Shown here in pieces: positions 7,092-60,746 of a stretch of 64,000 nucleotides of DNA. The notes under the pieces are model-generated. The model did no database searches, was not told where the DNA came from, and saw only the letters and a list, made by a program, of their open reading frames with translations. This stretch comes from Minutocellus sp. GHC0000111 (Eukaryota), in contig OZ361260.1 of assembly GCA_977018835.1 (NCBI GenBank), positions 3,038,001 to 3,102,000 of the forward strand. Reading direction: 5' to 3'. Numbering within the stretch: position 1 is the first letter of the stretch; each line of letters begins with the position of its first letter. The translations under genes were made by a program, and so were the position numbers.

Positions 7092-7118
7092 AGTAAAATG
7101 TAGGCCAACACGATCGTG

Positions 7119-10571: not shown

Positions 10572-10573
10572 TA

Positions 10574-13150: not shown

Positions 13151-13274
13151 AAGTGTGTGTACTACAGTCAGATCGTATTTTTCTTCTTAGTAGGAGGCGA
13201 GGGTACGCATAAGATTGTGCAGTAATATGAACTTAATTAATAGGTAGCGACGCACTACTGCTAATGCTGACTAG

Positions 13275-19603: not shown

Positions 19604-20317
19604 ATGAAGTCATCCCTCGCCCTCCTTGCCCGTCGAGCCGCAGTCGTTGCCAGCCGTCGCGGAGTTGCATCGCCAGCTGTTGCCACGACCTTCGTCCGCG
19701 CAGCGTTCAGCACACAAGCAGCCCACGATTTCGAGTCCAACATGGTAAGCGTTGAATGAGAACCTCTGATGAAACATCGGTCAGCCAGTTAGGTACTAGC
19801 TAGCAACGAACCAACTCATGAGCTACGCAGAATGCTTGTTTTCTTGGGCGAATCATTGTGCTTCTTTCACTTTCTTAACTTGTAGGCACACGATTTTTAC
19901 TCACGTATCACAATGTCTCGTGCTACTTTGTCGTTTTTTCAGGATATTATTGACGACGTCAACCATTTGAACGACCCCAAGGTGGCAAGCCAATTCGCTG
20001 TCGAGTCGCCGGATGGAGACTACGATGGCCATCTCGCAGAGGAACTGGCTGAAGTTAAGCGGCTCATTGATGCTCAGGCTGCCTCGGCCGAAGATGCCTC
20101 TGCCATCCTCGCTGATAGGGCCGCCGCTGCAAAGGTTATGGCTGTCGAGAGCCCCGACGGTGAAGTCGATGGTCATATACTGGAAGAACTGGAGGAAGTG
20201 AATCACATTATTGACGAAGCGGCCAAGTACGAGGACAAGGACGCGGTCGAAAAGAGGCACGATTGGGACAAGAAGGAAAGGATTGAAGCCGAAAAACACC
20301 CCGAGCATGACTGGTAG
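19604..20317 (+). CDS. Probable mitochondrial-targeted acidic protein with two AVESPDG repeats
   Basis: Arg/Ala/Ser-rich presequence ending RAAFST; GT-AG intron ~19745-19942; repeats AVESPDGDYDGHL / AVESPDGEVDGHI. Confidence 0.75.
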
Positions 20318-20477
20318 GCGTTCATGTTGGCAACAGAAATTGCTAGTACTGGAAAATCCGCATTTCAGCAAAGATTAGATGTACACCTCGGCGAAAATAT
20401 ACGAAATTATTTTAGCATAGCATTTATTAGAAGTATTCAGGAGTATTTCTTTTTCTCTCCAATTCATCGACAACTAC

Positions 20478-22367
20478 TCATTGTTCCGCTTCAAGCAAGG
20501 CAAGCTTGGGAACTGTGAGCTCAATTTTTGTCCTCTTTGGCTGCTTGGCCAGGTACGAGAGCTGTTCACGAACATGTGATGCTGCGAGAGATCGAAGCAT
20601 GCGTCGAGTCTTCTCGTTGACGATACTAGAATTCGATAAGGCCATGGCTTTGGCATAAATTCGAGCATCCCAAAGCATTCTCCGCTGGCTGAAAGTAGTG
20701 TCTTGAGAGAGTCCGTGGGATGTCTCTTCCGTGAACATTGTAGAGGAATCAGAAGGTAAGAACGAGGGTCTCAAGACAATGCCTGGTCGGTATGGAAGTC
20801 TATGCAAAATGCCGTCACTTGTATTGGATGGAGTTTCAACTTCGGCTTCGATTTCGGCACCACTGTCATAATTATATTCTCGAAGTACGCCCTCGAGATC
20901 GATTGCGCAACCGCTGCCACGAAGAGCGACCTCAAAATTTGGCGACAGCACTCCAAATGGCTGAAAGCAGGCAGATCCATTTTGCCTGGCTTCGATCCAT
21001 TGGACCACATCGTTTGGTGCCTCTATAGAGTCATCATCGTGCAAGAAATCCAAGCCTTTCCGGTTGACATCTATTTCTGAAGGCTTATCCAAGAAATCAA
21101 GTCCTCGTTTATCGATCGGCCAAGATGTGAAGCTTTCGCCCGTGACATTCTCTTGTTCCGGCCCATCCTGACGAAATATATTGACTTGGTCTTTCTCTGA
21201 TTTTTTTTCAATATCACCAGCATTGATCGATGCGTTATCGCTCGAGTCTGCTGGTGCTATTTCGTCACGAATGGAGGAATCCAATCCTTTCCTCTGGACA
21301 TAATATGCTTCTCGATCGAAACGTGAAGGTTCGATTTTTTGCCAGACTTCCGCATCTCCGGCATCGGCTCCTCCCTGCCCATGGATGTCAACCATGATCA
21401 CTTGCCTTGGCAAATGCGCCATGAGACTGGAAGAGATGGCCACCAGCAAATACAATGTCACAGCAATCTTGAGATTAGTGGTCGTCCAACCACCATTGGC
21501 GTTTCGCTCCGTCCTTTGTGTTGACGTGTTGTCGTCCACTGCAACAGGGCTGAAGTTGAGTTCGCTCACGATTCTGTCTACATCATACAGCATGTCATCC
21601 ACAGCCTTGTCCTCTGGACTCATGTTGACAATGCTCCCAGTGACCGTCGTCAGCACACGAACAGGCGTGGACTGCAAGTCAAACGGGATTTCTGACACCA
21701 ATGACGCCGAATCTCGGTCGCATTCGAATGACAATGGAAGGTCAGCCTGGTCAGCACCGCCATTCTCTGAACGGATGGGACTTGCCATCTGTCCCTCGTT
21801 GACGCCCAAAGTGGTTTGGATGCTACGAATCTCCTCGATGAGCTCGCACTCGATTCGGCTGGCCTGTTCGACGAGCCGGTCAAGAGAAGGGAGATTGTGA
21901 TTCGCATCGCTTCCTGGAAGATGTTTGATTGTCGACAGATATTTCTCGGTGGTAGGATGGATGTAAAGATCCTGTCGGAACGAAGGAATGATGGCAGAAG
22001 GAGAAGTCGATGGTTTGGTCGTTTCCCTGGTCGCCGCGTTATCAAACGTAGTTTTGCTCTGGTCATCCCTTTTCAGATTTGCATGAGTGCTCTTTGCGTT
22101 GCCAGCATTGAGATCCTTCAAAGCAAGCCCACTTGGCGCAGAGACTGCTGCCATCTTGGCATGCGCATTTGATGGTTCAATATCAGTAGACAATACCTTT
22201 TTGTTCTTCTTTTTGTTCTTCCTTCTTCGCCTCTTTGATTTCTGCTGCTGGTTGGGTGATGCATCATCGTCGTCACCGTTTTCTTTCGATGGTCTTCTGG
22301 ACGCCACAGGAGTGTCCACGCCGTCCTGCAAAATCTCCCACCTACTGCTTTTACTGCTCGCCCACAT
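20478..22367 (-). CDS. Hypothetical single-pass membrane protein
   Basis: ~630-aa ORF with a basic NLS-like patch and one TM segment (IAVTLYLLVAISSSLM). Confidence 0.65.
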   Translation of the reverse strand: MWASSKSSRWEILQDGVDTPVASRRPSKENGDDDDASPNQQQKSKRRRRKNKKKNKKVLSTDIEPSNAHAKMAAVSAPSGLALKDLNAGNAKSTHANLKRDDQSKTTFDNAATRETTKPSTSPSAIIPSFRQDLYIHPTTEKYLSTIKHLPGSDANHNLPSLDRLVEQASRIECELIEEIRSIQTTLGVNEGQMASPIRSENGGADQADLPLSFECDRDSASLVSEIPFDLQSTPVRVLTTVTGSIVNMSPEDKAVDDMLYDVDRIVSELNFSPVAVDDNTSTQRTERNANGGWTTTNLKIAVTLYLLVAISSSLMAHLPRQVIMVDIHGQGGADAGDAEVWQKIEPSRFDREAYYVQRKGLDSSIRDEIAPADSSDNASINAGDIEKKSEKDQVNIFRQDGPEQENVTGESFTSWPIDKRGLDFLDKPSEIDVNRKGLDFLHDDDSIEAPNDVVQWIEARQNGSACFQPFGVLSPNFEVALRGSGCAIDLEGVLREYNYDSGAEIEAEVETPSNTSDGILHRLPYRPGIVLRPSFLPSDSSTMFTEETSHGLSQDTTFSQRRMLWDARIYAKAMALSNSSIVNEKTRRMLRSLAASHVREQLSYLAKQPKRTKIELTVPKLALLEAEQ

Positions 22368-23488
22368 CACTGCGGTACTGGCAATCTGGTGCTAGGTCCA
22401 CTCAGCTACAGTTGCTGTATCTATCCCTTGAAGAAGAGAACATGCAAACGACAAAAGGATGTCAGTTCGAACGACAGTGATGAATGGCCGTTGCTTTTCC
22501 GTCATTTGAGTCGAACGAGTCCAACAAAACAGGTTTTTGCGTCCAGTTTGCGTCAGGTTTTTCGCCTGGTTTTTGCGTCGCGATCGCGCAGGCTAGCAGG
22601 AGACTACGTAGATCTAGATCTTGAAATCTACGTACATGTAGCTACATGTGTAGGAGATTTCATCTGAAAGCACCTTGAGTTGTTGAGTGTCCAGGCCAAC
22701 ACCAACGGAGTGAAGGCAATGGTGAGTAATGATGCAGCACCGGCCGTGCGGTGGTGGGATATTATGGGGTCACAAGAGACACATGTAGGTGCATCTGGCC
22801 GTCGGCATTTGCAAAAGGCTTTGGGTCAATTTGACTGATGATAAAGTTGATTCCTTTTCTGTATTTTCATTTTATTTCTAAGACAAAAGAATCGGATGGA
22901 GATGATGTCTCTTGCGATATATAACGTTGCTTTGCTTTCCATATTCAGTAAGATTGGCTCCAACCGCACAATGACACAATGCTCGTCTTCCCTTATGATG
23001 CCGGTACGATTGGGAAAAGTTAAACGCGACGATTACATCTCGCTCTTCTTTTTTGGTACTGTACCATGGTATGAGTAACGATTCTAATGACGACCACATG
23101 TTATTCCCAAAGATCTTTTCATTCACATCCTGCTCTGCCTGTGAACTCCCAGCTTGCTTTTTCACAATCGCCACCCGATTCTCTTTTAATATCCCCCCAC
23201 CAACCTCTCAACATAATAACCCTACATGTACTGACAGTATAATCTGACCTACATGTATGGGAACACGTGTTCATTGTATCTTCTGTCTCTTTTTTGTTTA
23301 TTTGATTTTCTCCCCTTTAGATATGCCAACCAAATGCCCTGCAGAATTTCCAGCCACGCAATGGAATGCAAATTTACGAACCACGCGAATGACAATATAT
23401 ATAATGATATTGGCTGCATTGGCTACACGTACAAAATAAATTGCTGCAAATGGCAGATCTGAATCCCCGACGCGGTAAATCTACGTAG

Positions 23489-24348
23489 CTAGTCGGACTT
23501 GTTGTTGGTGGCGGCGTAGCACGCGTCGATCTGCTTCTGGAACTCGACGGCGCTGGACTCCCTCTCAAGTCTCTCCCGGCGAAGGTCCTCGGAGCACTTG
23601 CGTGCCTCGGCGGTGGACCGCTTGTCGGCCAGGCGGGCCTTCTCGCTCTCGGCCAGCTTGGTCTTGTACGTTTCGACCTCGGCCTGGAGGAAGCGAAGCT
23701 CCTGGCTGAGGTTGGTCTCGGTGAGGATGCGGAGGGAGCGCTCGTGGGAGTAGAGGGTGGCCAGGCCCAAGGTGGAGAGAACGAGGAGAGGAAGGAGAGG
23801 GTCACCAGGCGGGTGAGGATGATGGCCTTGCTCTTGGGAGGGGCGGTGGCGGAGGTATCAGCGGTCGCGGTGGCGGTGGCCTTGGGAGCTGGAGCGCCCA
23901 CCCCGGCGGCCTCGTCGTCTTCGGACTCCTCGGGGGCAGGGGCGGCGGCCTCCTTTTTGTCCCCCTTCTTGGCCTTGCGCTTCTCTGCCCACTCCTTGGC
24001 ACGTCGCTCGGCCTCGGCGCGCTTTTGGGCCTTGGTCTTCTTGGCGGCGGGAGAGGTGGCAGCGGTGGCAGCGTGGAAGGCGGCAGCTCCGGACTGACCT
24101 CCGCCGCCGGCAGGAGCAGGTGGGTCCGACGATGCGGCAGCACCTCCGAGGCCCGAGCCCCAGCGGAAGAAACCGCCGACTCCGCCTCCATTGGCAGCGG
24201 GTGCGGGGGCAGGCGCGGCGGCAGCGGCCGGAGGGGCGGCGACGTCCTCGGCCTCGGCGGCAGAAGTCTTCTGGGCCTTGTTCGGCGTCGTGCTCTTGCC
24301 GTCCGTCTTGCGGGTGCGCTTCCGCCCGGGGGAGGGAGAGGTTACCAT
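23489..24348 (-). CDS. Hypothetical Ala/Lys-rich protein with TM helix and C-terminal coiled coil (1-nt frameshift ~23785)
   Basis: High-GC3 coding bias; MVTSPSPGRKRTRK start; restoring one C joins LVTLSFLLLVLSTLGLATLY to the coiled-coil ORF 23489-23770. Confidence 0.65.
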
Positions 24349-24602
24349 GGTTGCGATACAAATGAAGCAAAAAATGGCCATGGCGAGCCTACCGCGCCAA
24401 AAGATGATGAGATGATGAGTGAGGATTTTTTATCAAAAGCCCAAGAGAGGGAACTTCCCTAACTCAAAATCCCCTCTATGTCCTTGTGCTCTTGCATGCG
24501 ATCTTTCCGCCTTTCAATCTCACAATTCGAGAGATGATAATGCAGAGAGAGAGAGAAGCGAACCATATCGTATAATATCCAATAGAAGGCTACCGACGCA
24601 GA

Positions 24603-26609
24603 ATGAACAGTAGTGGCAAGCAAACAATTCCAAGAGTCGTCAATTATGGCGCTACCGACGACGATGATGACGAACCATCCTTCGCTGATGGCGGCAAATC
24701 TCGTCGCAGATCCACAATGTCCAACATTCGGCAGTCCATGGTCAACATTGCCGAACAGACTCGAGAGGCCCTCCATTCTCACACCATGAGTTCCCTGGCA
24801 CTTTGCAGTTCCGTACTCTCCATGATGTACCTGCTCATGAGCGCGTTTCCCTATTCGGGATTCATGGCGATGCAGCTGATTCCAGGTCTTACGCATGAAT
24901 CAGCCGGTACATACGCCGGCATCCTATCTGGTTCCTTCATGATCGGCCGTCTCTTCTCCGCCTACCCGTGGGGAGTAATTAGTGATCGTTACGGACGCAA
25001 GTTTGTTCTCCTCTTCTCAACGGCAAGTAGTGCCATCCTAATGGTCGCCTTCGGCTTTTCCTATTCGTTTCCATACGCTGTCTGCGTCCGATTCTTCACA
25101 GGCATGTGCAATGGCACCATGATTGCAGCCAGGGTCAGTGTGGTGTGTGAAAGATGTAGCCGCTGTTTCTATGTTCGGCTATATTGCAACGTGGCTTTAC
25201 ATATATGCTCGGCTACATGACTGCATACTTCTATCTCATCTTTGTGGCTTTTCATCCCAATCATTGATTTGTTATTGCGGTAGACGGAATTGGCAAAGGG
25301 CAACCATGACCTCGAAGCACGTGGAATGGGATTGGTAATGAGCATGGTAGGGTTTGGTATGCTGATAGGTCCGGCGATCGGTGGTGTGCTGAGTGAGCCT
25401 GTTACTCAGCATCCAGATGTTGACTTTGGTGCCTTTGAGGGCGTGCTTCTTAAATTCCCATTCTTGTTACCAAACTTAATTGGAGCTCTATTGAGCGCCT
25501 TGGCGACAATGCAAATCATATTCTCAGTGGAAGAGACCTTGCCAGAAGACAAGTTACGCAGCCCAAAGCATTTTGTTCCAGATGCCATGCGATGGCTTGG
25601 AGGCCTTCCATCCAAGGCGTGGAAAAGTTTGACATCAGGGCGGAATTCTGAGAATGAAAGCGGTGGCGAGTATGATGCAGTTGATACTACTGATGATGAA
25701 GACAGCGAAAGTGCAAGTATTGCAGAAGATTTGAAAATCATCGAAAGTCATCACTTTGGAGAAGTGGGCGATGCGGTGGCCATGTCCACCCGATCATCCA
25801 GAGCTTCGTTCAGTGCTGCGCTCCATCGGCCTTCGAGAGCACGATCATCCCTGCTCAGCACGCTTGCTACCTTGGAAGAAGGCGCGAAAAAGTCCTTCCG
25901 AGACAGTGTCAAAAGCAGCGGCGATGAAACCCATGCATCAGCAAATATCTCTTCGCTCATGGCCAATGAGAGAGTACGCGAGTGCCTTACATCGTATTGG
26001 TGCATGACTTTTGCCAGTACAGCTGCAGGGGAAGTCTTCCCTCTCTTCGCGATGGCAAGAAGTCCTGGTGGTCTAGGAGTGGAGGAAACAGCCATCGGTG
26101 TCATAGGCGCTGGTTCTGGCCTTCTCTTTTGCGTTTGTCAGTACTTTATATTTGCTGCCTCCATGAAACGACTTGGTTTGCGCAAAACCATGGTGTACTC
26201 GGGCTTTCTATCTGTCACCCCTGCAATTTTTATTCCTCTGTCGCTGCTCTTCAATACGAAGGCCGGCGTTATGACGTACCTATCGATATTGAATGGAATC
26301 ATGCTAATCTTCTTCTCGAACTGGAATGCAGCTTTAACAATTACACAGAATAGGGCCGTAGATCCTTCAGAAAGAGCAAAGCTTAACGGCTTAGCGGCTG
26401 TGGGAGCAAGTGTTGGTAGAGGCGGAGGGCCATTGTTTGCAGGTATTCTCGTGACACTTTCGTATACGAGCGGAATTGTTCCTACGGCTTTCGGGTCCAT
26501 TCTAATTTACTTCGTGATTTCAGCAATGGGCTTTGGCGCCTTCGTTCTCACATCCAAGCTTGAGGACGATGAGGTCATAACGGAAGATGGTAGTGCTCAG
26601 GAAAAGTAA
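24603..26609 (+). CDS. MFS transporter (ZIFL/DHA1-like)
   Basis: WGVISDRYGRKFV motif A, IGPAIGGVLSEP, ~12 TM helices; one intron ~25143-25282. Confidence 0.92.
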
Positions 26610-28055
26610 TTAAGAACTCCATTTTTGTCCACCTTCAAGCTGATACAACCCTGCAGGATTTCCCTCTTGGACGGGCCTTGCCCATTTCAATTTTACCCCA
26701 CGTTCAAAAGCCTTCATTTCCGCAGTTCTACGCAAATGTAGACTATGCTGGTAGCTTCCAGGCTCTGCTGTTGCATCTCCTTGGTCCTTATGGACTGACA
26801 CGATGTCGGCAAATGTAGATTTGTCATTCTCATCATTATTATTTGTCACGCGAAATGCGACTCGTAGGGCACAGAAAGTGATATCAAATGTTGTTGAATT
26901 TGCATTTCCCCGACCTTCATGAATCGAACGAGGATCCTGGCTAACAATCTCTGCAATTGCTTGAATTACCTCATCGTCAGTGTTCGACTCTTGAGATCGT
27001 TTTCTAGCTCTTTTCGACAGAGGAGGATAAAGTGGCATCAATTCTCCATCTTGTCGAGCGTCCAGGGCAGCTATCTTGGCATCAGGCGACCACCGAACTT
27101 CTGATAGCTGGTCATCTTTCTCAACCCACGCAGGCACATGCAGTGTTTCTCCGATAGCATCCCACGGAACATACGGCTTGAGGTCGTAAACAGGAGTTTG
27201 GTCGACGAGATCAAGTCCCAAGAGGCGAATCACAACCCGCCTTCGTTTCTTGCCGCTGCCACTTTCATATGGTTCTGTTCTAATATCCTCGATGCAAGCA
27301 AGAGATAAACCAATCTCGTTTGGTCTGTGTGGTGATCGCGTTGCAAGACAGCCTGTCTTTGTACCACCGGCACGCGGAGGCCGGATTTTTGTTGGGAATG
27401 CCGGTCGATGAGAGCTGCAGATGCAATCCCGACCACACTGAGGACAACCCGTCGAGTCGCTGCCATTCACATCGCCAACACTCGATTGGGTCAGTGCCCG
27501 TCGAGCCCTTGCGTCTTTTCCTTTGCCAATGGGATTCAAATGGAAGCGCTGTTTCGTAAAGAAAGAATTCCAGAATTCAACGAATCAAATTAGAATCAAA
27601 GGTAACCACGACATAATCCAATGCGCCCCAGCTCTAGTCGTATATAATTTACTGACGAAAACGACCCAAACATGACTGTACTCCTTCAATCCATCAACAA
27701 CGTCGAAGGGCATGTCCTCTTCCAGTATGAGGAGAGATCGAGCATGTGGGGCAAGCAGGCCCTGTCGAGGAGTTCCCGCTCTCTGCGGAAAAGGACTTCT
27801 GATTGTACCAATGGGATGTATCAATACCGGCTCAGATCGGTTTGTGGGCCTTTCTCTCTTCGGTGCGCTGCTGTTCTCGATAATATTTCTTTTGCCAGCA
27901 TTGTCGCTACTAGTACATGTAATTTGCTCATTCTTGTGACGGCGAAGGAGATCAAGCTCCCGGCGAAGATGCCAGGCATATCCCAGCGAAATCAATGCAC
28001 CAGCAAATGCGACTACTGCGGCACCGACGAGCGGCGTCCCATTCTTGCTGTCCAT
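26610..28055 (-). CDS. TRMO: tRNA (m6t6A37) methyltransferase TrmO/TsaA-like
   Basis: PIGTIRSPF..RAGTPRQG, YSHVWVVF, ATRSPHRPNEIGLS, DLVDQTPVYDLKPYVP; intron 27549-27656. Confidence 0.92.
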
Positions 28056-28477
28056 TGGAGATATCACCTAATCCAATTGGTATGGGGTACTCGCGCCCAT
28101 CCGGCCTCCTGCAGTCCTGCAGCCATCCATTTTCCTGCCCAGCTACCGTGTCATTGGTACTTGTGCGTAACGATAACGCTCCACTCGCAAAACTGGCGTT
28201 TGGCGCACCCGCCACTGCCGAGATCATTCGTATCAAAAGAATGAGTCGGGGCTCGTCTGGTCTCCCTTTTAGCTTTCAGCTCGAGGCAAGAGTATCCCCT
28301 GTTGCGTTTTAACTTGCTTTGATTGGCGCACTGGATTGTCTCTTTTTGCGGACATATTCTTGTGCTGGATCCATAAGATTGTAGCACGGAACTTCGAACC
28401 GAAAGACATTAATATAGAAGACCTGCTCTTCTGTCCTCTCAACAGTCCCGCCGATCAACTCCAACAACGAATCAACA

Positions 28478-30893
28478 ATGCGACGCCCCAATAATACATC
28501 TACAGCGCTACTCCTGGCGCTTGCGTTGTCCCCCTCTTTATGCAACCTGGCATCGGCGCAGGCACAGCCCACCGGAGGAACTGATCTGGGTGGCGGCATC
28601 GTAACGCAGACGAACGTGGAGCACTTTGCCAAGATCTCGCTCGATGCCGAGGAGATGTTCACCCTCACCCAGTCCAATTCGTACAACGATGCATCCAACA
28701 TATACCTGGCCGGCAACAACTCCATCCAGTACGACCGGAATGGCAATGCTCTTCCCACCAAACGCAGCCTTTCGTCGCTGTCCACCGGCGCTTCCGACGG
28801 CAAGTTCGATGGGGAGGTCCCGTTTGTCTTTCAGATGTATGGGCTGGCGGGCGGTGCTGGCCACACATATGAGACCTATGAAAGCTTCGCTACGTATGCC
28901 GATGCTTTTGTCAACGATTCCCTCAAGGAACAGAAGGGTGCGCTGGGACCAGAAGCGGCGGTCGCACTCAACGTTTGGATGTATGCCGCTCACGTTCTCA
29001 CCATTGCCGTGGAAGATTGCGCATTGGAATCGTCCGGGGTCAATCTGGACATTATTGGGCGCGACGAAGCCCTCGGTGGCAGCGAGGATGCACTTGACAT
29101 TTTCATATCATTTTGGATTGGATACAACCAAGCTCCTGGAAGTGACGATGGAAGCTCTCCTTATGCCATGGCCGAGCGTGCCGCTACCCTCTTCGGCACT
29201 TCCGGTCCTAATGGCGAAGCCAAGGCCAATGTTGCAATCAAAGCACTCTTTAATGAAGCGCAGCAAATCCTGTCCTTCCCTAATGCCTGCCGTCCTGGAT
29301 CTGATACCGTTGGTCAGCTTTGGGGCATCCTCCATCGCACCGTCAGTCAGATGCAGGTCCCTCTTGTTCAGCAGCTGATTGATGCTCTGGTCCGCGAGGA
29401 CCAAGACCGCATCAGCCTGTATGCCAAGGCCGTCGTCCCACAAATGTCCAGTTGCGCTGCATCAACGTATCGTCGTCTGAAGGAGAACTTGCTAGATCGT
29501 ACCTATGATCCCACCAAGTTTGTAGATGTTCTTGGAGACTTACAATCAAGCTATGACTGCCTCGGCTTTAGTTGTGACGACATCGGCGCCTACAAGACGG
29601 ACCGAGTGGCGCAGTGTGCTGAGTTGCCAATCAATTTCCCTATGGCTGAATACAGTCCAACTAGTCATGTTCATTTGGTGAGTTGCTGAAGAATTCAAGA
29701 GCTTCATGAAATGTGTTGCTGTGCATTTTAGAATTTTATCAACAGATTTCTCACTTTTATTTCCACCACGACCTCTTCATGGTTTGTTTTGGCTTTGGCT
29801 TCAGCATTCAAAAATCGATCTGGATGTTAATGCAATCAAGGCTTTGTTGAGTTTCGACAGTGACGAATCCTGGGCCGCAGCGAAGGATATTTACATGTAT
29901 GGCAAAATTTCGGAAATCTACCGTAAATCTCCTGAAAGCGATCCGTACACGGTCCGTTCCCTGCAAAGTCTGGCAACGTCAGCTCTCCGAAAGAAATCCC
30001 CTTGGTACAAACTGTTTGAAGAATATCACCAAGATCCAAACTATGCTGATAAGATTATCATGGATGTCTTTGAGGGACGAGGGAAATGGGGCAATGCCGC
30101 CCGAGAACAGAGAGCAGAGATGCTAACAAAGACCATCCAATACCAGGTTCTTTACATGTACCTGCTCGCCGAGGCAGCTGATGCTGAAGCCGATTGCCGA
30201 TCCGGAGACAAGAATGATAATATCGGTGGAGCACATTCCTGGGACGAGGTCGCTGCTTTCTACATTGGCTCTCTTGAGGGCACTACTCGAGGCGGATCAA
30301 ATGACTTTTCCGATGGACAGCTTCAATGGAATCTCGCCAACAAGCGCTCGACTCAGTTCAACACCCAAGTTCCTGACGGATATGCGTTGGTCAATTCGGA
30401 GATTGAAGATGATCTCTATGCCGGTAAGGGCGAGTTGGATGCCTACGCCTGTGATAGCCTGTCCAAGACGATCAAACGTATTGAACGCAATTCGATCGTG
30501 CCCATGATTCAAAGCGTTATTCGATACGCCCTCAAGGTGGAGGATTTATCGTACAGCTCAAGCAGCAAGGATATTGCCGAGGCAGAAGCTTTTGCAATGG
30601 CAATACTGCCCATTGTAAAATCGGTGGATAAGCCCGGCGCAATAGTTTTGGAGAACAACATGATCATTCAGGAAGGAGTCCAACCAGTATCCGAAGGAGC
30701 GCAACGAGTTGCAGACGCCTTTTACAAGACCATGGTAGAATTTGAGCTGGAATGTGAACTTGTGGGCCAGGCCGATGGCGTAGGAGCCTGTGAAATGTTT
30801 AGAAAGATGTCCAGTCCGGCCAGCTCCATGTGGTCGTCAGCAGCACCCTTGCTTTCCATTATGCTTGCTGGAGCCCTATCTGCGCTGCTCTGA
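28478..30893 (+). CDS. FEA1/low-iron-inducible periplasmic (ISIP2/phytotransferrin-like) two-repeat surface protein
   Basis: Signal peptide; two repeats starting H[FS].KI.LD..A..IY..G; WDEVAAFYIGSLEG; C-terminal hydrophobic tail; intron 29678-29804. Confidence 0.75.
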
Positions 30894-31042
30894 TGATGCT
30901 TTCTTACATGTAAAAGGCATGCATTTTTTTGATCTTCTAGCTACCGGTAGATCTACCAGTAGGATTCCGACTACACTGTAGCTAGATGATACATAGATCT
31001 ACCTTGTCTATTGGCGTGATAAAATAGTAGACATGTATGGTA

Positions 31043-31484
31043 CCCTGATTATCATAGAAACCTATGACCGTTTTGAAAACCTATGCCCTCATTTTGAGCC
31101 AGCTCAAAACCTATGCTCTCATTTTGGGGGAAACCTACATGTAAACCTATGCCCCATGCAATTGGTGCAGTTGTCTGTTCTCTACGATGAAGAGTTTGTT
31201 GAGTCAAAATGTAGACGGGAAGCGTGGATTCATAGAAGATCTTAACTGTGAGGAATGCGAAGGAAAAGATCTCGAGGAAGAGAGGGAAGATGAGTAGTCT
31301 AGGTGCATTGCAAGATTGATTGGCATCAGTGCTGGTGCCGGTAAGGTAGATCTAGTAAAAACCTGTGCCGAATAGAAAATCTATGCCAATTAGAAAACCT
31401 ATGCCTTCATTTTAGCCTTAGGGCAAAACCTATGCCTTCGTCAGACCTCAAATCTATGGCATAGGTTTTCTATGATAATCAGGG
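31043..31484. mobile_element. MITE (442 bp) with ~24-bp TIRs and TA target duplication
   Basis: TA|ccctgattatcatagaaacctatg ... cataggttttctatgataatcaggg|TA; about 9 internal aaaacctatgc-type subterminal repeats; no coding capacity. Confidence 0.92.
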
Positions 31485-43473: not shown

Positions 43474-44040
43474 CGAATGAAGAGAACTCGCATATATACT
43501 AGTGAAGTAATAATTTCAATTGAATCCTTGAGTTTCATATTAAAAACCGATTTGCATACGTCGTGCAATGCCACGTTTCTAGATCGAAATGAGGGTGCAC
43601 TGATACGATGTTCCAAAAAAAGTAGAGCGATGTCCAGCAAACTGATCCAAATTGTTGAGACGAAATTCGCGCTCTTTGGCGGCCTCATCCTTTTCCTAGC
43701 AAATGGTGGTGGATATCTGGAAAGAATCTCTCCAGAAGCAACTACTTGTACTAGTACTTTTCGAGGAATCTAATGCAGCACTTGCCTTATACACACAGAC
43801 TAAACCTACCTACAACGAATTCATCAAAAATTACGATAAATTCATCAGACACACATGTCACGTATACTAAATTGAAATCAACTTTGAGATACGAAATTGA
43901 TAAATCATAAATGTATTATTCGGCTTTATCTTCTATAATCTACCAGTAGGAATTCCTACTTGCTGTAAACACTGTCCGGTCGTACGGACTATCAGCCAGT
44001 GCGCCAGTAGATCTACTCGCTCATATATATTATGAGCAAT

Positions 44041-44715
44041 TTAGTTCTTATTCCTCACCACGGCCGGGACAGGGATCATCTCCATTTTGGCCTGGGGCTC
44101 AAAGATACCCTTGCCAGACGAGCAGCACATCTTCTTGAAGCCCAGATCGCAGCACACCTGAGGCCGGGCGCAGTCGTAGTTGGACTCGCAGGTCGACTCG
44201 CCAAGCAACGACTTGGCCATGGTGGCGAAGATATTGTCCTGCTGTTGCTGCTGTCTTCCAGCGCCTGGCGATAATCGGTTCTGCTCAGAGGCGGCGGAGG
44301 CAGCCCGCGATTGGCGCATTTCCTCGGCCTTGAGGGCCTGCTCTCCCTCCATGGCTCGTACTTGGATTTGCAGGTCCACAAATTCTTGTTCCGTCATGGG
44401 CTTGAGACCGAATTTCTTCCTGCTCATATTTTTCAGCTCAAAGGCCCTCTGGTCGAAGGTTTGGCCATCGTTGTCGTGGGTGGCATGAAGGGCGGTCAGT
44501 GCCGGCGTTGATCCTCCCGCCGACGACGAGGTGGTTACAGTTGGATGGTGGCGGTGGTGGTCATGGGGGACATTTATGGCCGAATTCCGATTGTGATGAG
44601 AACCTGCTGCTCCACCACCAGTCGAGAATGCCGACGAAGGGGAGGAAACGACGGCCACAGCCGCTGCGGCGACAAACAGAGAGCGCTTTCTCATGGTAGT
44701 CCTGTTGGATGTCAT
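44041..44715 (-). CDS. Hypothetical, probably plastid-targeted protein with C-terminal Cys cluster
   Basis: Signal peptide ending SSAF; CESNYDC.RPQVCCDLGFKKMCC. Confidence 0.7.
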   Translation of the reverse strand: MTSNRTTMRKRSLFVAAAAVAVVSSPSSAFSTGGGAAGSHHNRNSAINVPHDHHRHHPTVTTSSSAGGSTPALTALHATHDNDGQTFDQRAFELKNMSRKKFGLKPMTEQEFVDLQIQVRAMEGEQALKAEEMRQSRAASAASEQNRLSPGAGRQQQQQDNIFATMAKSLLGESTCESNYDCARPQVCCDLGFKKMCCSSGKGIFEPQAKMEMIPVPAVVRNKN

Positions 44716-45621
44716 GGTTAGGTTTTGGTTTGCGGTTGCTTTGAACGGTTGGATCAAGTGAATTGTGATGGAATGATACGATACGTGCCAATGCCGCGGA
44801 AGTTTGACGCAGAACAAAACAACGCAGAGTTCTGCAGAACTCCTGCGTCAACCCAACACATCACGAGATCACGAGTAGATGAGTCATTCGATTGAGTCAG
44901 TGAGATTGAAAAGTTTCAGGTGATTCCTCAAAATTTCGCAACTTACTTCGATTTCCCCCCAAAACCAAATTCTACCTGCTTACTAAGAAACACGCTTTCC
45001 GGGTTATGCACATACTAGTAGCTCATAACCTGTTTCCCGCTCTTTTTCGTTTTTCATACGAAAACGAGATGTGAGTGGAACGATGGCCGAGTTGCCGGCT
45101 AGTGGAGGTAGATTTTATCGACCGACCATGTCAGTGAACGCTGGGGGACCTTTCCGTTGGTGCATGCGAGCGTTGAAGTGCTGCAGGAGTTGTAGCAGAT
45201 GGAGAGAAAACGCAGCACATCCTCGGCTGGTGATCTGCCTCTCGGGACCTCACCTCCGATTGGAAACACCGGCGGAGCAGACACGTGTGTAGCCGTGAGA
45301 CAACGCGTAGTGTGGGGCGGCAGATCTCAGTCAAGCAATCAGGCAGCGCTAATACTGGTGGATTTTCAACAGGAACTGGTGTATTTGGGTGGCTTCAAGG
45401 TTGGGCTATCCGTCACATTTCATTTCCATCGGACCGACACCTCGATCTTCATCCTGGCAGTGCTTTGGTTATGAGCTGCGAAAGAGATGTCAGTGATACA
45501 CGACAATGGCTACATTTGCCGCCCAAAACACATTATTCTCACTTCCAACATCTTTCCATTCTTTTCTTCCAATACCCCAACAGTCTGTATTAGTATATTT
45601 TCGTATCAAAACTTTTTCATC

Positions 45622-46206
45622 ATGACCCGTTACGCTGTCGAGCCCGATGCCGCTGTCGCCCACTCCAAGACCCGCGGATCCCACCTCCGTGTGCACTTCA
45701 AGCACTGCCGTGAGATCGCTCACCACATCAACGGCATGCCCGTCAACAAGGCCATGAAGTTCCTCGAGGACGTCCTCGCCTTCAAGGCCGTCGTCCCCTT
45801 CGTCAAGTACACCGGTGGCATCGGCCGCAAGGCCCAGGCCAAGCAGTCCAAGACCCCCGGCTCCAAGGGTAGGTGGCCCGTCAAGGCCACGGCCGTCATC
45901 AAGGACATGCTCACCAACGCCATCGCCAACGCTGAGACCAAGGGTCTCGACGTTGACACCCTCTACGTCTCCCATGCCCAGTGCAACAAGGCCCCCGCCG
46001 GCCGCAGGCGAACCTACCGTGCCCACGGCCGCATCGGCAAGTACGCCAGCCATCCCGCCCACGTTGAGTTCATCCTCAGCGAGAAGAAGAAGGGAGTTGA
46101 CAAGGCCGATGAGGAGACCGAGGCAGGAGAGGGCGCCACCGGAAAGCGCATCAGCCGCAAGCAGGCCGCCAAGAAGCGTTTCGTTGCCATCGGTGGTGAG
46201 AACTAA
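45622..46206 (+). CDS. RPL17: 60S ribosomal protein L17 (uL22), native copy
   Basis: RGSHLRVHFK, GRWPVK, RRTYRAHGRI intact; strong codon bias. Confidence 0.97.
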   Translation: MTRYAVEPDAAVAHSKTRGSHLRVHFKHCREIAHHINGMPVNKAMKFLEDVLAFKAVVPFVKYTGGIGRKAQAKQSKTPGSKGRWPVKATAVIKDMLTNAIANAETKGLDVDTLYVSHAQCNKAPAGRRRTYRAHGRIGKYASHPAHVEFILSEKKKGVDKADEETEAGEGATGKRISRKQAAKKRFVAIGGEN

Positions 46207-46573
46207 GTCGCTACTCGGAGAAAGAAAAAGAAAAATATGCACAATCCCCCCTTTCATTCAATCTCTTGTTTTGATCTGATCCGTACCTAAGTTGGTCGAT
46301 AGTGTAAACATAAGGTTGATGTCAGAACCAAATTTATGCCAATACCGGTATGCATTTACATCAAGATTACTGTTACCGGTATTTATTTAAATCGTTGCTT
46401 GAAGAGAGGGGAGGTCAGTCAGGAATTCGGCGGTGGCAGCAGCGCAGCAGCCAGTCAGTTCGGCTAGCTAGTCTAGAAGAAGCGCAGCTCAACATATCGG
46501 TAGATCATGATCTACTTGTGTAATCTCCTGACTGATTCGAAAATACCATCTTTCTATTGAGATGAAATGAGTA

Positions 46574-49500
46574 CCTTTCGAGTTCAGAGGATTTGAAAGT
46601 GACGTGATGATGACGTATTAGAAACACGACCACACCAGACCAAAAATCCAAGCTCACTTTTTCTAACTCCGAGGAATAAATGACGGCCAAGATGGAAGTC
46701 GGGGCAAGAGCCAAGTTATGGTCACCAACTTCTACATATAGTCGAGAGATATTGTGCACCAGAACCAATAAATGTACATTATGTGATGATTTTTTTCGAC
46801 ATTTGCATTCATTCCTCACCCCGGGAAAAAACACATGTTTTTGGAAGCACCAAATCAAAATGTAATGAATAGAAATGGACATGCTATGATAAGTTATAGC
46901 AAATCAATGACTCCATCGTCTTCATCATTTTCATCTATGTCGTCCTCAATGTCATCATCTTCGCCGGGAGCATCAATTGGCCAGAGTGGTTCACCATCCT
47001 CTTCAGCTTCTTCCTCGGCAATTTTTGCGAGAGACTAGCCTTTCCCCGTCTGGTCTCCACAAGATTGTTACCGCCACGACTTCTCTTGATGTTGTTATAT
47101 ATCACTGGAAGTTTTCCAAATTCATTGAGAAAGGCCTCTTTTGATGCGACATTGGCCCATACTTTCATCACAGTCTTGTCAAGAGCATTCGCATCATTCT
47201 TCTGACCGCGATGCTCCTCCTTTTCGACGGCCGACTGCAAAGACATCCAGATGCCGAGATCAAGAACATTTGTTTCGGGCGACCGAGGAACCTGCTGGAT
47301 TATCTCAATCTTATATTTGTTTTTGAGGTCCTCGGTGTACTTCTCAACTGCTTCATTGGACCCATGACCGCCGGCATTGTCCATCATAAGATACATGACA
47401 TCATCAGACTCCTGAATATTTTGTGGATCCCACTTCACCCAATGATGTGCGTCTCGAATCGCCTTCCCGACCTCATTCATAGTCTCCAACATCCATTTGG
47501 AGTCGCAGCTACAGTCCTTGGTAACCTTATCGCCCCGTTGATACCGCACCCCGAGCTCAAGGTCGTCGATCTCAACCTTCACCTTCTCTCCATCATTGCC
47601 ATCCATCAGGAGTGTGTCGCTTGAGACTCGAGATCTTTTGATTGTAGCCAACAGCGGCATGCTTGCGACTTTTTGCCTGACCGTCGGATTTATAGTCCTC
47701 GTATTGAAGTTCCAATTGCTCTGTAACAAACTCAGAAAGGCCGTAGATTTCGGCAATGTGGTCGCAAAGATGGCCGGCGGTCATGTCAGCACTCTCTCGT
47801 CGTAAATGTCGCGCCAATCTTTGTCATTTTTTAGCGCATCGTTGACCTTAGCATCTGGAGAGAAATTCTGATTACGCGTAAGCTTTTCCACCTTCTGCTC
47901 CCTGGCGACTCTCTTGATCATGATGCGCCCATTGAAATCAACGTCTTTGGTTTCATCCTTCATTGGTCGGCCAACAACTCCAAGACACATGACTTTGACA
48001 GGGTGTCTTCTGGATCGAATTTTCGGGCTTGCCTCGGAAGCATGGATAGACGCGAGGTTCGGACTGCTTAGTTCTTCGTCAGAAAGTGGCAACATCTTGA
48101 TCTTTCGTCGCCGAGTAGCAGTGTAAAACCACTTTTCATCAAGATGCGCTACAGGAATGTTGGGATCGGTCGTAATGTCCTCCCACTTTTCGATCCAATC
48201 AAGTCGCTTCCCACAACATTCGGGGGTGAGCCTCGGCTTCTCGATCGACGACTTCTCCTCACCGCCTTGCTTTTTCCACCAGCGAAAAAGCTGAAGACGA
48301 TGGAGACTAATTGTCAGCCTATCTTCATCTGGAGTAGCTGATTTTCCGCTCATGCAGTCAGCTAGCTCCTTAAAGGTTGCCATCGCACCCTTCATCCGAG
48401 CAGCACACCGACGACACAGCTCGCGGAGACATCCTGGCTCCTTCTCCTCGATCATGTCCGTGCATGCCTTCCTTCCACGAACCTCCTTTCTGCCGATGGG
48501 ATTGCTGACGCCATCAGCAAGGCTTTTGTAGAGCTGGTCTCTCCACTTGTAAAGCTGAGAACCACCGGTTGACTTGGCATGGCCGTGATCGTGCGCAACT
48601 TGCCGACACGCGGCAGTTGCAATTTGTTGCCGGTCTTCATGCGTGCGAGTTGGGTCGCCGCATCCCCACCAATCCGCGAGAGCCACGGCGTTGAGCCGCA
48701 TTCTTTCATTCGCCTGCTTTTCTTTTCTGATTGGTGTTGGTTCGGTGACGGTTGCATTGGGACGAGGAGGACGGAGCATGTCATCGTTGGCCATCCGAAC
48801 AACAAAGTCGAGGCCGAGAGCGACCTTTGCCTGTTCATCAATGTCACTGGAGGTGGCACAGACAACGGAAGTGTCGGCTCCTCCTAAACCTTCATCATTT
48901 GGGGAGGCTGCAGCTGCTTCAGTGGCGGAAGCATCACCAGTTCCCTTCAGCATGCTGAGGAGACTTGCTGGCATCCAACCCAGTTTCTTGGCCTCGTCGA
49001 CTAGTGATTTTGCTCTTGCTTCGCAACGCGCTGACTGTGCCTCCTTTCTGTGAGCTGACAACCTCTCACCTAGCTTAGTAGCTAAGACAGTCGAGCGCCC
49101 AGAGAACAGAACTTCATCGGGATTTCTTTTCTCGTGCACCTTCTGTCCCTCCGGTCCAGAGAATTTCGGGTGGTTGTCCTCCTTCTTTTTGCGCGCAACC
49201 TGTGAGCACAAACACAAAGCGCCCTGCGTCTTGTCTTCCCTCTCGGCCGACACGTCGATCGACAAGTGCAACTTCAAACTACACAATGCTCCTTGAGAGA
49301 TGTTGCTGCACATCCTTCCATTTTTCCTCGTTGTGCTGTAGCTCATTGTTTCCTCCACCGACGGACTTGGAACGCAACAAGTCGGCCTCGATGAAAGCAG
49401 CAGGGAGGACGTCTTCCCATCATTTCTGCCTGCCGAGAACCAACACAAATGTCATCTTTGCCGCAGGAATCGGGGGTTGCTCTCTCCACCACAGATCCTT

Positions 49501-50080
49501 ACCAGCCCTTCGAATGACATCTGCTGCAAGGAGAAAGGCCATGGGGATGGGAGGAGGAGGGGCCGTCCTCTTCTTCGCCGACGACGGTGACGGTTTGGCG
49601 GGCGAATTTGACCGTGGCCGCTTCTTCGACGTGTTTGCGCTCGGCGATGGTGTGTTTTCGGCTCAGCTGCCGCCTTTGCCGCCTTCCTGGATGCCTTGAT
49701 GGTGTTGCCTCTCTTGCTCCCTGAGAACGAAGTTCTGCTGCGTTTGCATTTTTTGGGCGTGGTCTGGTTGGTGGTCGTCGTCATCGTCACAAAATTTGCG
49801 GGTTGCGGTGAGGGTGTGCGGGGGACCAAAAAACACACATGTGTTCCTGCCAGAATCTACTGGACCTGCGAATTCAGTGGACACTGCTGGTCGTCGGTGG
49901 CAACCTACTGAATGAGCAGGTCCAGCAGACATCCACGAGTTGAGGAGTGTTTGCGTTCCTCCCGAAGAGAGCATCGACTAACAACAAAACACGTTGTGGG
50001 AAATGAGAAATGGGTGCAAGAATGACCTTTTTTAGGGGTTATTGGCACACCCTCTCTACAAATCCTCTGAAACCGAAAGG
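46574..50080 (-). mobile_element. DD39D mariner-type transposon, copy B, degenerate
   Basis: TIRs at 46574-46595 and 50059-50080; TA at 46572-46573; inverted homolog of 7119-10571. Confidence 0.93.
46894..49784 (-). pseudogene. DD39D transposase pseudogene (copy B)
   Basis: ORF fragments 49452-49838, 47781-49448, 47593-47817 and 46935-47756 carry DEKWF, MDNAGGH and NVLDLG; many small indels. Confidence 0.9.
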
Positions 50081-51087
50081 TGACGACTCAAGGGGCGCAA
50101 GGGGCCGCCGTTTTTTCACCTCTGTCTCTGTTGCTCTCTCTCTCTCATCTCCTTATTGAAGGATTGGTTTCGGAATGATGTAATAATGATGCCACATCGA
50201 AAGAATTGCTCTTGAGTTTGAATTTGCGAGTTTCTGGACACACATGTTCTTACATGCGAGAATGGGGCGAGCACGGGTGGAAAAGAGATGTATCACGTAG
50301 GTCTGCTAAGAGGTCCTAAAGCTAAGCTAGATAGACATAGCTAGTAGAGGTTAATAGGACCTACGTAGATGAAAAATGGGCCATCGGAGATGTCGTTGGC
50401 CCATGGATCAACGGTCAGGATAGGGCACTGAGTCAGTGGTCTGATCACCGTACGTACCGTACGTATGTATACGTACGTACGTATCCCACGGTGTCAACAG
50501 ATCGCATCGGCATGCATCCAGGCTCACAGAGTTGCAAAGAAGGTAATCGTTGCAAAAGGCAACAATGATTTTCTTGGAAACGGTGAAGGCATTCATGTTG
50601 GGGTGCGAAAGGATTTCAGGCCGACTGAAAATGAATGGCATGGTTCGGATAGATGGGAAAATTGTCGCTCCTCCCCCCCCCCTCCTCCTGCTGCTGCTGC
50701 TGCTGACATCCAACCATGGATAATTAGTCCTGCGGTGCTTTTAAGTTATGTTATGTTTAAAATAATACTAGATAATTTAGATTCGAGCTATATTTGTGCT
50801 ACTACACACACATGCCGTACATGCATGTGTAGTGCTCTCTTGTCAGTTTTGATGGTTCCGGCTTTGCATGCATGTGTCCGTGTCCGGGTTGCGGGCCCAA
50901 AAATCGACATTTTTTGGTCCCGGCCCTGCGCTCGATTTCTCGCGAAACGGACTTCGTATTCGCCTTGCCTCGTGACTTTTGCAATGCCAGAGTCAAAAGA
51001 CTGGTAAGAGGTGAAGGATCGTCTCATCCGCTCCAGATCGGCCCGGGCTCATTACAATTCCAATTTAAGAGCACAGATTATAATAGA

Positions 51088-53393: not shown

Positions 53394-54131
53394 TCAATCC
53401 TCCCCCTCAGACAATTCATCAAGAGCATCATTGCCGCCAAGCGTTCCTGCGCCTCCCATCAGGCTATCCATGCCGGGCATACCGCCAGCTCCGCCCATGC
53501 CACCCATCATCGCCTCAAGTCCGCCTCCGGCAGCCATATTCTTGTACATTTCGCCGGCCGCCTGCATAGTCTCCCTCCACTTGTCCGCATCATTGAGGAT
53601 CTCTTCAAAGCCTGGCATGCTACCCATCATTTGCTTCATCATTGGGTTCTGAAGGATCATCTGACGACTTTCCTCAAGCTTCTCCGGATCGTTCATGTAT
53701 TCATTGAACATGGGCGAATTCATCATCTCCGACATTGCCTTCATGCTTTCCTCCATCGAGGGCATCCCCTCGCCGCCTCCTGGCATGGACTTCATAAGGT
53801 CATCGAGCTGGGAAGGGTCCATGCCTGCCTGCTTCATCATGTCCTCGAGGGAAGTATTGGAGGATGGGGGAGCGTCAGCCTCAGCTCCTCCCCTGGGGAC
53901 GAGGAAGGGAGCCGCTTTTGCGCCAAAGGGAACAGTAGCTGCGCCGGCTGCCGTCTATCGACACGTACGATATTGGAATGGATGAAGAGAAAAGAACGTC
54001 AGTGAAGTTGAAGTTGAGGTGCTGCAAGAGTCACAGTACGTTACGAACTCTAGCCAGCAGCAAATATTAGAAAATAACGATACCACTCACCGCTGACGAG
54101 ACAAGAGAAAATATGATGGTAGAGCGCTTAT
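53394..54131 (-). CDS. STI1-repeat Met/Gly-rich protein
   Basis: MMNSPMFNEYMNDPEKLE..ILQNPMMKQMM; intron ~53955-54090; the start looks like [M]KRSTIIFSLVSSA with the ATG missing one base, so the 5' end is uncertain. Confidence 0.7.
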
Positions 54132-54603
54132 CAAGAGAGGAAATAAGGTAGGTCGGGAGCTCCAGATAGATGCTCGTGGGTGTGGTGTCGTGGGGGCGTG
54201 GAAGTAGAGTTCGAAAGTTCGAAAGTGTGGAGTGTGTGAACGACGTGCGACGAGGCAAACGGTCTGGCCATCATCCAACAGTCTCCAAGTGGAAGTAGAT
54301 CTACAGCTGCAGCTGTAGCTAGATCTACCGGTACCGGTAACGGGTTCATCTCGCTCTTCCCTCTGCCCACCGCCCGATCCTTGATGATCTACACCCTTGA
54401 TGCAAGATAAACATGATTTCTACATGTGGATGCAACATATATTTATATCTATCTAGACTATATAGTCGTCTAGTTGTCTTTTCTCGTTTGTCATTCGCTG
54501 TCGTTGCCGATGTGTTTTGATTGTTGAGGAACAAAAATCCCCCTCTCTCCTCTTTTTGTCATCGTTTCAATGTTCCATGTCATTATTTCTAATCCCCTTC
54601 TGT

Positions 54604-56061: not shown

Positions 56062-56631
56062 TTTCCTTGTGATAGCAAGGACGAAACGACGCTGATAAAA
56101 AGGGGGAGATTGAGCTCCGCCGACAAGGTCCTACTTTGCTTCACAAATAATTTTTGGAAGGTCCGACTCTTAGACTGCTACGATGTAAACAGCCGCTAAA
56201 TGACGCGATCTACCACCGCTGTAGGAATCCTCAATGAGTGCTTCCTAAGTAAATTGCCCTGATACCTCTCGCAGACGGGACAGTCCGGTCCAGGCAAGTA
56301 GGAAGCATGGCGGTGGAGCGCACTTGTCTTTGGGCGGGGGTTTGAGATTGAGAGGGCTATGGGTGCGAACCCAACGGTCGTAACCCTAACCCTGTTAGTT
56401 TGGCGAGTAGGTAAGCAGCACAAGATTGGTTCGAAAAACTTGCCCGCAGGTCGGACCGTTGGGCGTTGGATGACCCTCTCATTCGTTGAATTGCAGAAGG
56501 CCCAGCTGCTAGGAATTCCTATTACCTAGGCATAGCTTCTTAGCCAATAGGCTTGGGGGGTCACTAGCACAGAGCCAGTGCATCGTTTTGGTTCGACGGG
56601 AGCGATATCGCTAACCCTACCAATACTCAAC

Positions 56632-60173: not shown

Positions 60174-60746
60174 GATGGCAGCTTTTGGTACGATTGTATC
60201 TTTGGTGACGAACAAGTATTGCTGACTAGCGAGATCAAAACGACCGCCGCTTCTTAGAGAACACCCACCTGGCGTGTTCGTAGCTACGTAGGCCTAGCTA
60301 GATAATCCTGGCGTATGGACCAAGAACAATACAATCTAAAAGTAGATGCTTTGAAATGAAATGATAATTTTGAATTGTCTATTAATATTATTAACTTTAT
60401 TATCTTTTGTCTTCACATATAAAATAACTGAATGAAGCAGTAGTAGTAGTATCCCCGGCTAGGATGTCCAATAGGTACGTGGCCCACAAAAAATAGTAGA
60501 TTGCACTACCGTATGCCTCCGTACCAACACCCCTAGCTTCGCAAATTATGAATGGCGCCCATCTCTCGCCTGTACCAGAAACTCCTGTCCACGTCAACAA
60601 TCAACGCCACGCTAGCAAGCCCTATGATACAGATTCAAGAAGGACATGTATGTCACTCCCTCCTCTCGTATAGAGAAACAGGGACGGAATATAGCATTAT
60701 GCACTTCGAAAAACATTGAAATCAGTTCCATCTTGGCTAGCTTTCT

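Follow-up and report, generated by a model that had tools for sequence, protein, structure and literature searches.

Excision footprints of the Tc1/mariner superfamily are textbook knowledge: cleavage of the non-transferred strand falls a few letters within the element, so that after end joining the emptied site keeps TA plus two to four terminal letters (PMC6943129). The octamer TACATGTA has been named as a Tc1 footprint (PMC3520976). In this work we analysed 64,000 nucleotides (nt) of the alga Minutocellus sp. GHC0000111 (assembly GCA_977018835.1, contig OZ361260.1, positions 3,038,001 to 3,102,000 of the forward strand), a stretch referred to below as the window and numbered from its first letter, in which short palindromes bounded on both sides by TA are numerous and are linked into chains. 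These units resemble the footprints of Tc1 in C. elegans (taCATGta) and of Sleeping Beauty (TACAGTA/TACTGTA) in having TA on each side; in those footprints, the first or last letters of the element stand in between. However, known Tc1/mariner footprints have been described as single, rare and located at donor sites, whereas the window contains around 90 units of several types, chained on common TAs. In a further departure from the known footprints, the odd-length Sleeping Beauty type, with three inner letters, is not enriched here. A full-text literature search (supplements excluded) returned no account of chained TA palindromes or of mass footprints in diatoms.

Diatoms and oomycetes are both stramenopiles, and two of the octamers present in the window have a described counterpart in Phytophthora. 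According to three reports, the promoters of P. infestans are enriched in two palindromic motifs, M93 (TACATGTA, present 4150 times in promoters) and M94 (TACCGGTA) (PMC3597505); TACATGTA, as Motif-1, is found upstream of 12,070 Phytophthora genes, in a study whose authors dispute its origin as a Tc1 footprint (PMC3520976); and the same octamer is bound by PsMyb37 in yeast one-hybrid and gel-shift assays (PMC11134190). The likeness to the window is that, in a second stramenopile lineage too, both octamers are over-represented outside coding sequence. In those sources the Phytophthora motifs show conservation, are bound by a factor and have upstream positions, whereas the units in the window have GATC, CTAG, GC and CG analogues, form chains, occur in introns and for the most part 3' of genes, and lie beside TA-flanked elements with CC ends.

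Chains of TA-bounded palindromes

A preliminary description of the window had drawn attention to positions 54296-54339, which read tagatctacagctgcagctgtagctagatctaccggtaccggta and parse as TA-GATC-TA-CAGCTGCAGCTG-TA-GC-TA-GATC-TA-CCGG-TA-CCGG-TA, with six units that are all self-complementary. Re-reading the letters reproduced this parse exactly, and the other sites listed there also had the form described. The chain is located between the stop of a minus-strand LRR gene (end of the open reading frame, ORF, at 54607) and the 5' side of another minus-strand gene, whose RNA contig ends at 54206. That it might be an assembly artefact was considered and rejected, the chain being present in contigs of independent runs.

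When the whole window was scanned by script for TA-(even palindrome of 2-12 letters)-TA repeated at least three times, seven chains were obtained: 1029-1046, 4964-4977, 22629-22644, 30938-30955, 50470-50483, 54296-54339 and 60281-60300. The first is the three-unit end of a seven-unit cluster (CG, GC, CCGG, CATG, GATC, GATC and GC, at 952-1046) that begins 5 nt past the stop of a PCI-domain ORF. The second, TA-GC-TA-CG-TA-GC-TA, constitutes a perfect 14-nt palindrome in a spacer between two convergent genes (3'-3' spacer). The cluster TA-CG-TA-GATC-TA ... TA-CG-TA-CATG-TA-GC-TA, at 22605-22644, is flanked by two minus-strand ORFs, while the chain at 30938-30955 (TA-GC-TA-CCGG-TA-GATC-TA) belongs to a group of seven units within about 100 nt (30905-31003), beginning 12 nt past the stop of an ORF for a Fea1/ISIP2a-like protein. 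Four units make up TA-GC-TA-CG-TA-GGCC-TA-GC-TA at 60281-60300, also in a 3'-3' spacer and 110 nt past the stop of a mitochondrial-carrier ORF. Two of the sites listed earlier have to be read differently: the TACG-rich letters at 50451-50483 form a (CGTA)n microsatellite with imperfect copies, which lies within a high-copy repeat and differs in nature from the mixed chains, and 1027-1043 is in part a tandem repeat.

The flanks of the units are all unlike, save inside a segmental duplication described below, and on this ground the possibility that they are copies of one larger repeat was rejected. At least six different cores share the TA frame, and one-letter halves (GC, CG) are as frequent as two-letter halves. 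There are also longer units, with 8 to 12 inner letters, namely GGAATTCC (three times), GATCATGATC and CAGCTGCAGCTG. As a separate observation, the 12-mer TAGGAATTCCTA occurs three times (1073-1084, 43945-43956 and 56508-56519), each time with different flanks, and TAGGAATTCC is present at 18125; TAGGAATTCCTA is a longer TA-bounded palindrome for which a scheme of two-letter footprints does not account.

The preliminary description had proposed a genome-wide test of enrichment against chance; within the 64-kb window, the chains far exceeded chance expectation. Using 40 simulated windows for each Markov model, the mean numbers of TA chains with at least two, three and four units were 0.2, 0.0 and 0.0 at order 1, 0.28, 0.0 and 0.0 at order 3, and 3.33, 0.15 and 0.03 at order 5, compared with 11, 7 and 2 observed; for chains of at least three units this means seven against 0.0-0.15. 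With other delimiters the numbers of chains with at least two and at least three units were 2 and 0 for AT, 5 and 1 for CG, and 6 and 2 for GC, which is only slightly over the simulated means (1.3-3.2 and 0.0-0.12) and far below the excess seen with TA.

Individual words gave the same picture. Under an order-2 model, TACATGTA, the commonest octamer unit, was found 13 times against 0.6 expected, TAGATCTA 12 against 0.37, TACCGGTA 9 against 0.41, TACTAGTA 8 against 0.17 and the hexamer TAGCTA 21 against 4.3, and the top over-represented octamers of the window outside repeats all have the form TA-palindrome-TA. In the 12,112 nt lying outside any open frame of 130 codons, five octamers add up to 26 occurrences, with about 1.1 expected. 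Palindromes account for 55 of the 187 TA-N4-TA words, where 14.7 would be expected if the halves were independent, and non-palindromic inner parts are not enriched in the same frame. Across the window, no palindrome excess was observed for 15 other delimiter pairs or for inner lengths of 3, 5 and 6 between TAs, and the five-letter form CC(W)GG is absent. The inner halves are also restricted: CA (13), GA (12), CC (9) and CT (8) make up 42 of the 55 palindromic words, while the same four represent 34% of the use in non-palindromic TA-N4-TA (p = 1.8e-10), and AA, AC, AG and TG do not occur at all among the 55. The excess is thus particular to one frame (TA), two inner lengths (2 and 4) and four inner halves (CA, GA, CC and CT).

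The units are clustered beyond what random landing would produce. When 70-90 events were placed on 700-2600 TA sites (six settings, 2000 runs), between 0.04 and 0.98 chains of at least three units were obtained, and in no setting did even one of the 2000 runs reach seven chains. If the units arose by insertion, some sites must therefore have been hit preferentially, either as hotspots or because earlier scars are favoured.

TA-flanked elements in the window

Two copies of a 3.5-kb DNA transposon are present, one on the plus strand at 7119-10571 and the other, in the inverse orientation, on the minus strand at 46574-50080. Their terminal inverted repeats (TIRs) are 23-25 nt long and 88-91% complementary, with ends CCTTTCG...CGAAAGG; those of copy 2 have 23 nt and start with CCTTTCG. 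The element combines TIRs with a TA target site, the target duplication being imperfect, with one TG flank at each copy (TG and TA in copy 1; TA on the left and TG on the right in copy 2). The coding region of copy 2 (46938-49856, minus strand) consists of a single 973-codon frame with in-frame TGA at 49452-49454 and 47781-47783. In run X1 the summed contig depth of the element is 16,000-83,000, compared with 115-225 in the adjoining bins. In contigs of runs X1 and X3, at single-copy depth, the element is missing and 46573 is followed directly by 50097, with a plain TA at the junction and a few differences nearby, which means that the insertion of copy 2 is not common to all the sequenced material. 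In contigs of these same two runs the letters CCTAACCCTAACCCT replace 49357-49446 inside the element.

The protein encoded by this element could not be assigned at the usual sequence thresholds. Pfam searches with the ORFs of the window element gave nothing at E values up to 5, and PDB sequence searches with the element ORF and a 10-sequence profile returned nothing meaningful. Relatives of the ORF in public assemblies are 852-961 amino acids long, and two of them showed sub-threshold, collinear Pfam matches to HTH_Tnp_Tc3_2 (E 0.011-0.032) and DDE_3 (E 0.069-0.087). An AlphaFold model was used for one relative, P0024, with 961 amino acids and 61% identity to the window ORF; its mean per-residue confidence (pLDDT) is 56.8, with values of 70-88 over much of residues 600-900. 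Foldseek ranked seven PDB chains of the mariner transposase Mos1 highest for this model (E 4e-6 to 2e-3), ahead of the catalytic domains of Sleeping Beauty and SETMAR. The protein family of the 3.5-kb element is thus predicted to have the fold of the Mos1 transposase. The label "mariner" given to it earlier is consistent with this predicted fold and with the TA flanks, although not with the sequence thresholds. These data point to a divergent branch of mariner-like transposases, invisible to Pfam and abundant in the genome, one copy of which is found in the window but is missing from other runs.

A miniature inverted-repeat transposable element (MITE) of 442 nt, which looks related to the 3.5-kb element, is located at 31043-31484, with perfect 21-nt TIRs starting CCCTGATTATC and TA on both flanks (TA|CCCTGATTATC...GGG|TA). 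It was the sole good-quality match in a scan of the window for TA-flanked TIRs, and lies 38 nt from the seven-unit cluster at 30905-31003. In a contig of run X1, the left end of the 3.5-kb element stands directly after the 26 letters TA-GGCC-TA-CC-TA-CG-TA-GC-TA-GG-T. Elements therefore sit at chains in both cases. With the 3.5-kb element and the MITE, both TA-flanked and with CC...GG ends, the match between unit and element ends described earlier for CC..GG was borne out. The equivalent match for CA..TG and CAG..CTG was not, given that the window holds no element with such ends, nor with GA..TC or CT..AG ends other than one weak candidate of the GA type. This is a 97-nt sequence at 4865-4961, bounded by TA on both sides, with ends GAGTC...GACTC (11 of 13 terminal letters complementary) and abutting the chain at 4964; it is a possible miniature element, to be taken as a lead only. 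A looser scan for TA-flanked inverted repeats gave 12 pairs, and 0-6 per shuffled window.

Next to copy 2 of the transposon, and abutting it, there is a second high-copy repeat (50100-50958) with a summed depth of 13,000-30,000, which contains the TACG microsatellite at 50449-50484; the bin at 50004-50670 has a summed depth of 29,577, compared with around 175 in single-copy bins.

Probable excision footprints and competing explanations

We regard as probable, although with some reserve, that the TA-bounded palindromes are accumulated excision footprints of TA-targeting elements of the IS630-Tc1-mariner group, left at spots that were hit repeatedly. Following established Tc1/mariner chemistry (PMC6943129), an element would insert at TA and duplicate it; at excision, the non-transferred strand would be cut a few letters inside the element, leaving flanks that keep TA and the first TIR letters. 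End joining would then result in TA + x + revcomp(x) + TA, with x being one or two terminal letters of each inverted repeat, and the scar would be palindromic because the element ends are inverted repeats. Such a scar would turn one TA into two, so that the next insertion and excision at either of them would add a further unit and build a chain of unlike palindromes on common TAs. Resident or related families may have made the units in this way, with chains growing by repeat visits. The form of the units, the predicted Mos1 fold and the clustering agree with this proposal. TA is found on both sides of the units, as in a retained target duplication, and the palindrome excess exists only with TA...TA; the CC..GG elements fit the TACCGGTA units; and the restricted set of inner halves is as expected of element termini.

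Comparison with other sequencing runs offered a view of the chain itself. The runs containing this stretch include sponge, marine and biofilm metagenomes. In X3 and X4, which come from different studies, the contigs split into two paths at 54303, within the chain at 54296-54339: the second path leaves after TAGATCTA and continues with GC-TA-GATC-TA, lacking the CAGCTGCAGCTG-TA unit, and then with unrelated sequence starting with GA. The chain is thus a point of structural difference in both runs. In X3 the depth of the second path is 95, compared with left and right depths of 156 and 175, which is a misfit with a simple allele. The 20 letters that follow the chain in this path have no match in the window at up to three mismatches, and the 12-letter version was found twice against 4.6 expected. 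In run X10, with contigs 85-95% alike, the contig covering 54369-54507 runs into unlike sequence before 54369 (an observation on one locus and 30 letters); no contig of this run covers 54048-54269, and chain-like contigs appear with unlike flanks.

Several of our data weigh against an origin as footprints. None of the run contigs provided a pair of alleles with TA on one side and TA-unit-TA on the other, so that units segregating as indels between haplotypes, which the preliminary description had suggested looking for, were not found; the second path in X3 and X4 is not a simple unit indel. The element-free junction in X1 and X3 has a plain TA and no scar, and it is evidence of mobility or of an unoccupied site, not of excision. 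The window contains no element whose ends match the CATG, GATC and CTAG octamers or the GC and CG units. The transposase assignment comes from the model of a relative with a mean pLDDT of 56.8, with no Pfam match above threshold and no PDB sequence match. Units with 8-12 inner letters, such as GGAATTCC, GATCATGATC and CAGCTGCAGCTG, exceed the 2-4 retained end letters described for the superfamily. Seventeen of 87 units fall within approximate gene spans, and two copies of TACATGTA in a Fea1-like ORF correspond to Tyr-Met-Tyr codons that align without insertion to 12 homologues; these two were rejected as scars, being plain coding of a conserved Tyr-Met-Tyr. Finally, TACATGTA and TACCGGTA are the Phytophthora promoter motifs mentioned above, with a MYB-related factor binding the former in that lineage. 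Since no elements with matching ends beyond CC..GG and no unit-indel pair were seen, we infer repeated insertion and excision at the same TA rather than observe it. The earlier footprint reading therefore stands in unit form, TA frame, restricted halves, CC..GG elements, predicted fold and clustering, and lacks its CA-, CAG-, GA- and CT-ended elements and its unit-indel haplotypes.

The main rival is that the units are dimeric binding sites for transcription factors, kept by selection, with the chains being clusters of sites. The Phytophthora data (the M93 and M94 motifs, the distribution of Motif-1 and the binding by PsMyb37) and the kinship between diatoms and oomycetes speak in its favour. 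However, one factor cannot explain at least six cores in a single TA frame in which only palindromic inner parts are enriched, and the placement of the units, evaluated with an approximate gene map, does not show the upstream bias of promoter elements. Excluding CTAG units, tandem spacers have 8.95 of them per kb, 3'-3' spacers 3.35 and spacers between divergent genes (5'-5') 0.76. With CTAG included, the 5'-5' spacers, which hold only promoters, are the poorest, with 4 units in 3937 nt compared with 14 in 3287 nt of 3'-3' spacers (binomial p = 0.006). This 3' bias is only suggestive because the difference is not significant when regions are counted (5 of 7 3'-3' spacers and 3 of 9 5'-5' spacers bear units; Fisher p = 0.31) and the 3'-3' spacers have double the TA density of the 5'-5' spacers. 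Measured by distance, 46 of the 58 intergenic units have a facing stop codon within 350 nt (median 174.5 nt), and 18 of the 58 have a facing start as near as that. Units are also found in introns (two in six RNA-confirmed introns, which are GT..AG and 116-141 nt long), and they chain.

Related loci argue against conserved binding sites as well. In 80 metagenome loci containing PGK (239 kb, up to 90% PGK identity), 23 octamers were counted against 19.3 expected and 40 hexamers against 41.5, which indicates that the excess of TA palindromes is not a general diatom signal. The only similar one among these loci is L057, one of the closer relatives (88% PGK identity), with 5 against 1.0. As an additional observation on this locus, its positions 1-500 and 4200-4300 are packed with TAG/CTA/TAC/GTA words together with TACTAGTA, TAGCTA and TATGCATA, in a mix unlike that of the window. 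Taking both sides into account, we consider selection for binding sites an unlikely origin of the units, and a secondary use of some scars as binding sites, by co-option, possible.

At V(D)J and hAT-type breaks, hairpin opening is an established source of added palindromic letters, and a repair process unrelated to transposon ends could similarly insert palindromes at TA breaks, by off-centre opening of hairpins that generates P-nucleotide-like additions or by fold-back synthesis. The likeness between P nucleotides or hAT-type footprints and our units is that of short palindromic insertions at a repaired break, and two features of the window would favour such a process: units with 8-12 inner letters exceed the usual Tc1/mariner footprints, and for three of the four octamer types the window offers no element with corresponding ends. 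However, those palindromes copy the flank of the break, whereas here a small fixed set of halves is used and the TA frame is required. Flank copying predicts halves in proportion to their use after TA, which does not agree with four halves providing 42 of 55 words. In addition, hairpin opening at a TA-ended flank would be expected to centre the palindrome on TA|TA and not between the TAs. A palindrome-inserting repair process, raised earlier as the alternative to footprints, is therefore disfavoured by the restricted halves, and we hold it to be quite unlikely.

The closeness of the units to stop codons could also mean that they are signals or structures for 3'-end formation or transcription termination. 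Together with the distances given above, the start of four of the seven chains 5-110 nt past a stop codon, and the presence of TAGATCTA at 44008 within an RNA contig of run X6 (44001-44799), would agree with this. However, mRNA-like PGK contigs of relatives (103,545 nt) have no excess (5 against 4.9 expected), introns and a few 5'-5' spacers contain units too, such a role would call for many unlike cores, and perfect palindromes of 8 nt would not be able to form stable hairpins. The 3' bias may just as well arise from the places at which insertions are favoured or do no harm, and a role in 3'-end formation appears very unlikely.

That the chains are ordinary microsatellites, grown by slippage of TAGATC, TACCGG or TACG units, is highly implausible: Tandem Repeats Finder (TRF, score 30) does flag 1027-1043 (TCTAGA x2.8) and 50449-50484 (CGTA x9; period 4, 79% matches), and identical neighbours occur in three of the seven chains (GATC-GATC, CCGG-CCGG and CG-CG-CG), but at that score it made no call on the other five, that at 54296-54339 included, which mix unlike units, and slippage accounts neither for isolated units nor for the requirement of palindromy.

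If the units are indeed footprints of TA-targeting elements, a good part of the short insertions that spacers, introns and 3' flanks contain would have been written by transposons since departed, scar counts would be a record of past transposon activity that copy numbers miss, and insertion hotspots could be read directly from sequence. Motif discovery in stramenopiles would need a mutational null for abundant TA-bounded palindromes, with TACATGTA and TACCGGTA in Phytophthora as cases to re-examine. A more far-reaching proposal, which we consider doubtful, is that transposon traffic at TA sites has been a main builder of non-coding DNA in this stramenopile lineage, with scars seeding scars and some of them, such as TACATGTA and TACCGGTA, being the material recruited for stramenopile promoter motifs like those that MYB-related factors bind in Phytophthora.

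Duplicated segment and gene content

The RPL22/L17e gene is found together with the transposon copies in a 99% identical, inverted segmental duplication (10519-11862 and 45283-46626). At its outer boundary next to copy 1 there is an 11-nt fragment of the element inverted repeat followed by TA (11863-11875), and because of this a composite element may have carried the gene along or duplicated it. Between the two RPL22 segments a single unit differs, reading TACCGGTA in one and CACCGGCA in the other, with two substitutions and no indel; no gain or loss of units was seen between these copies, which at 99% identity are too alike to show it. Near the other end of this region, head-to-head telomere-type repeats, TTAGGGTTAGGGTTAGG|CCTAACCCTAAC, are located at 7062-7092, with 27 nt between them and transposon copy 1, and are centred on a TAGGCCTA unit.

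The window as a whole is gene-dense, with around 50% G+C, and encodes PGK, tubulin, a bZIP protein, Fea1/ISIP2a-like proteins and many LRR proteins. The closest PGK cluster is most frequent in Bacillariophyta and, together with the metagenome PGK loci at up to 90% identity and the gene content, suggests a diatom. Two genes of the Fea1/ISIP2a-like (low-iron-inducible) type are arranged in tandem at 28418-29689 and 29706-30893, with 17 nt between the ORF ends, and the best match in a Fea1 protein search had 52% identity.

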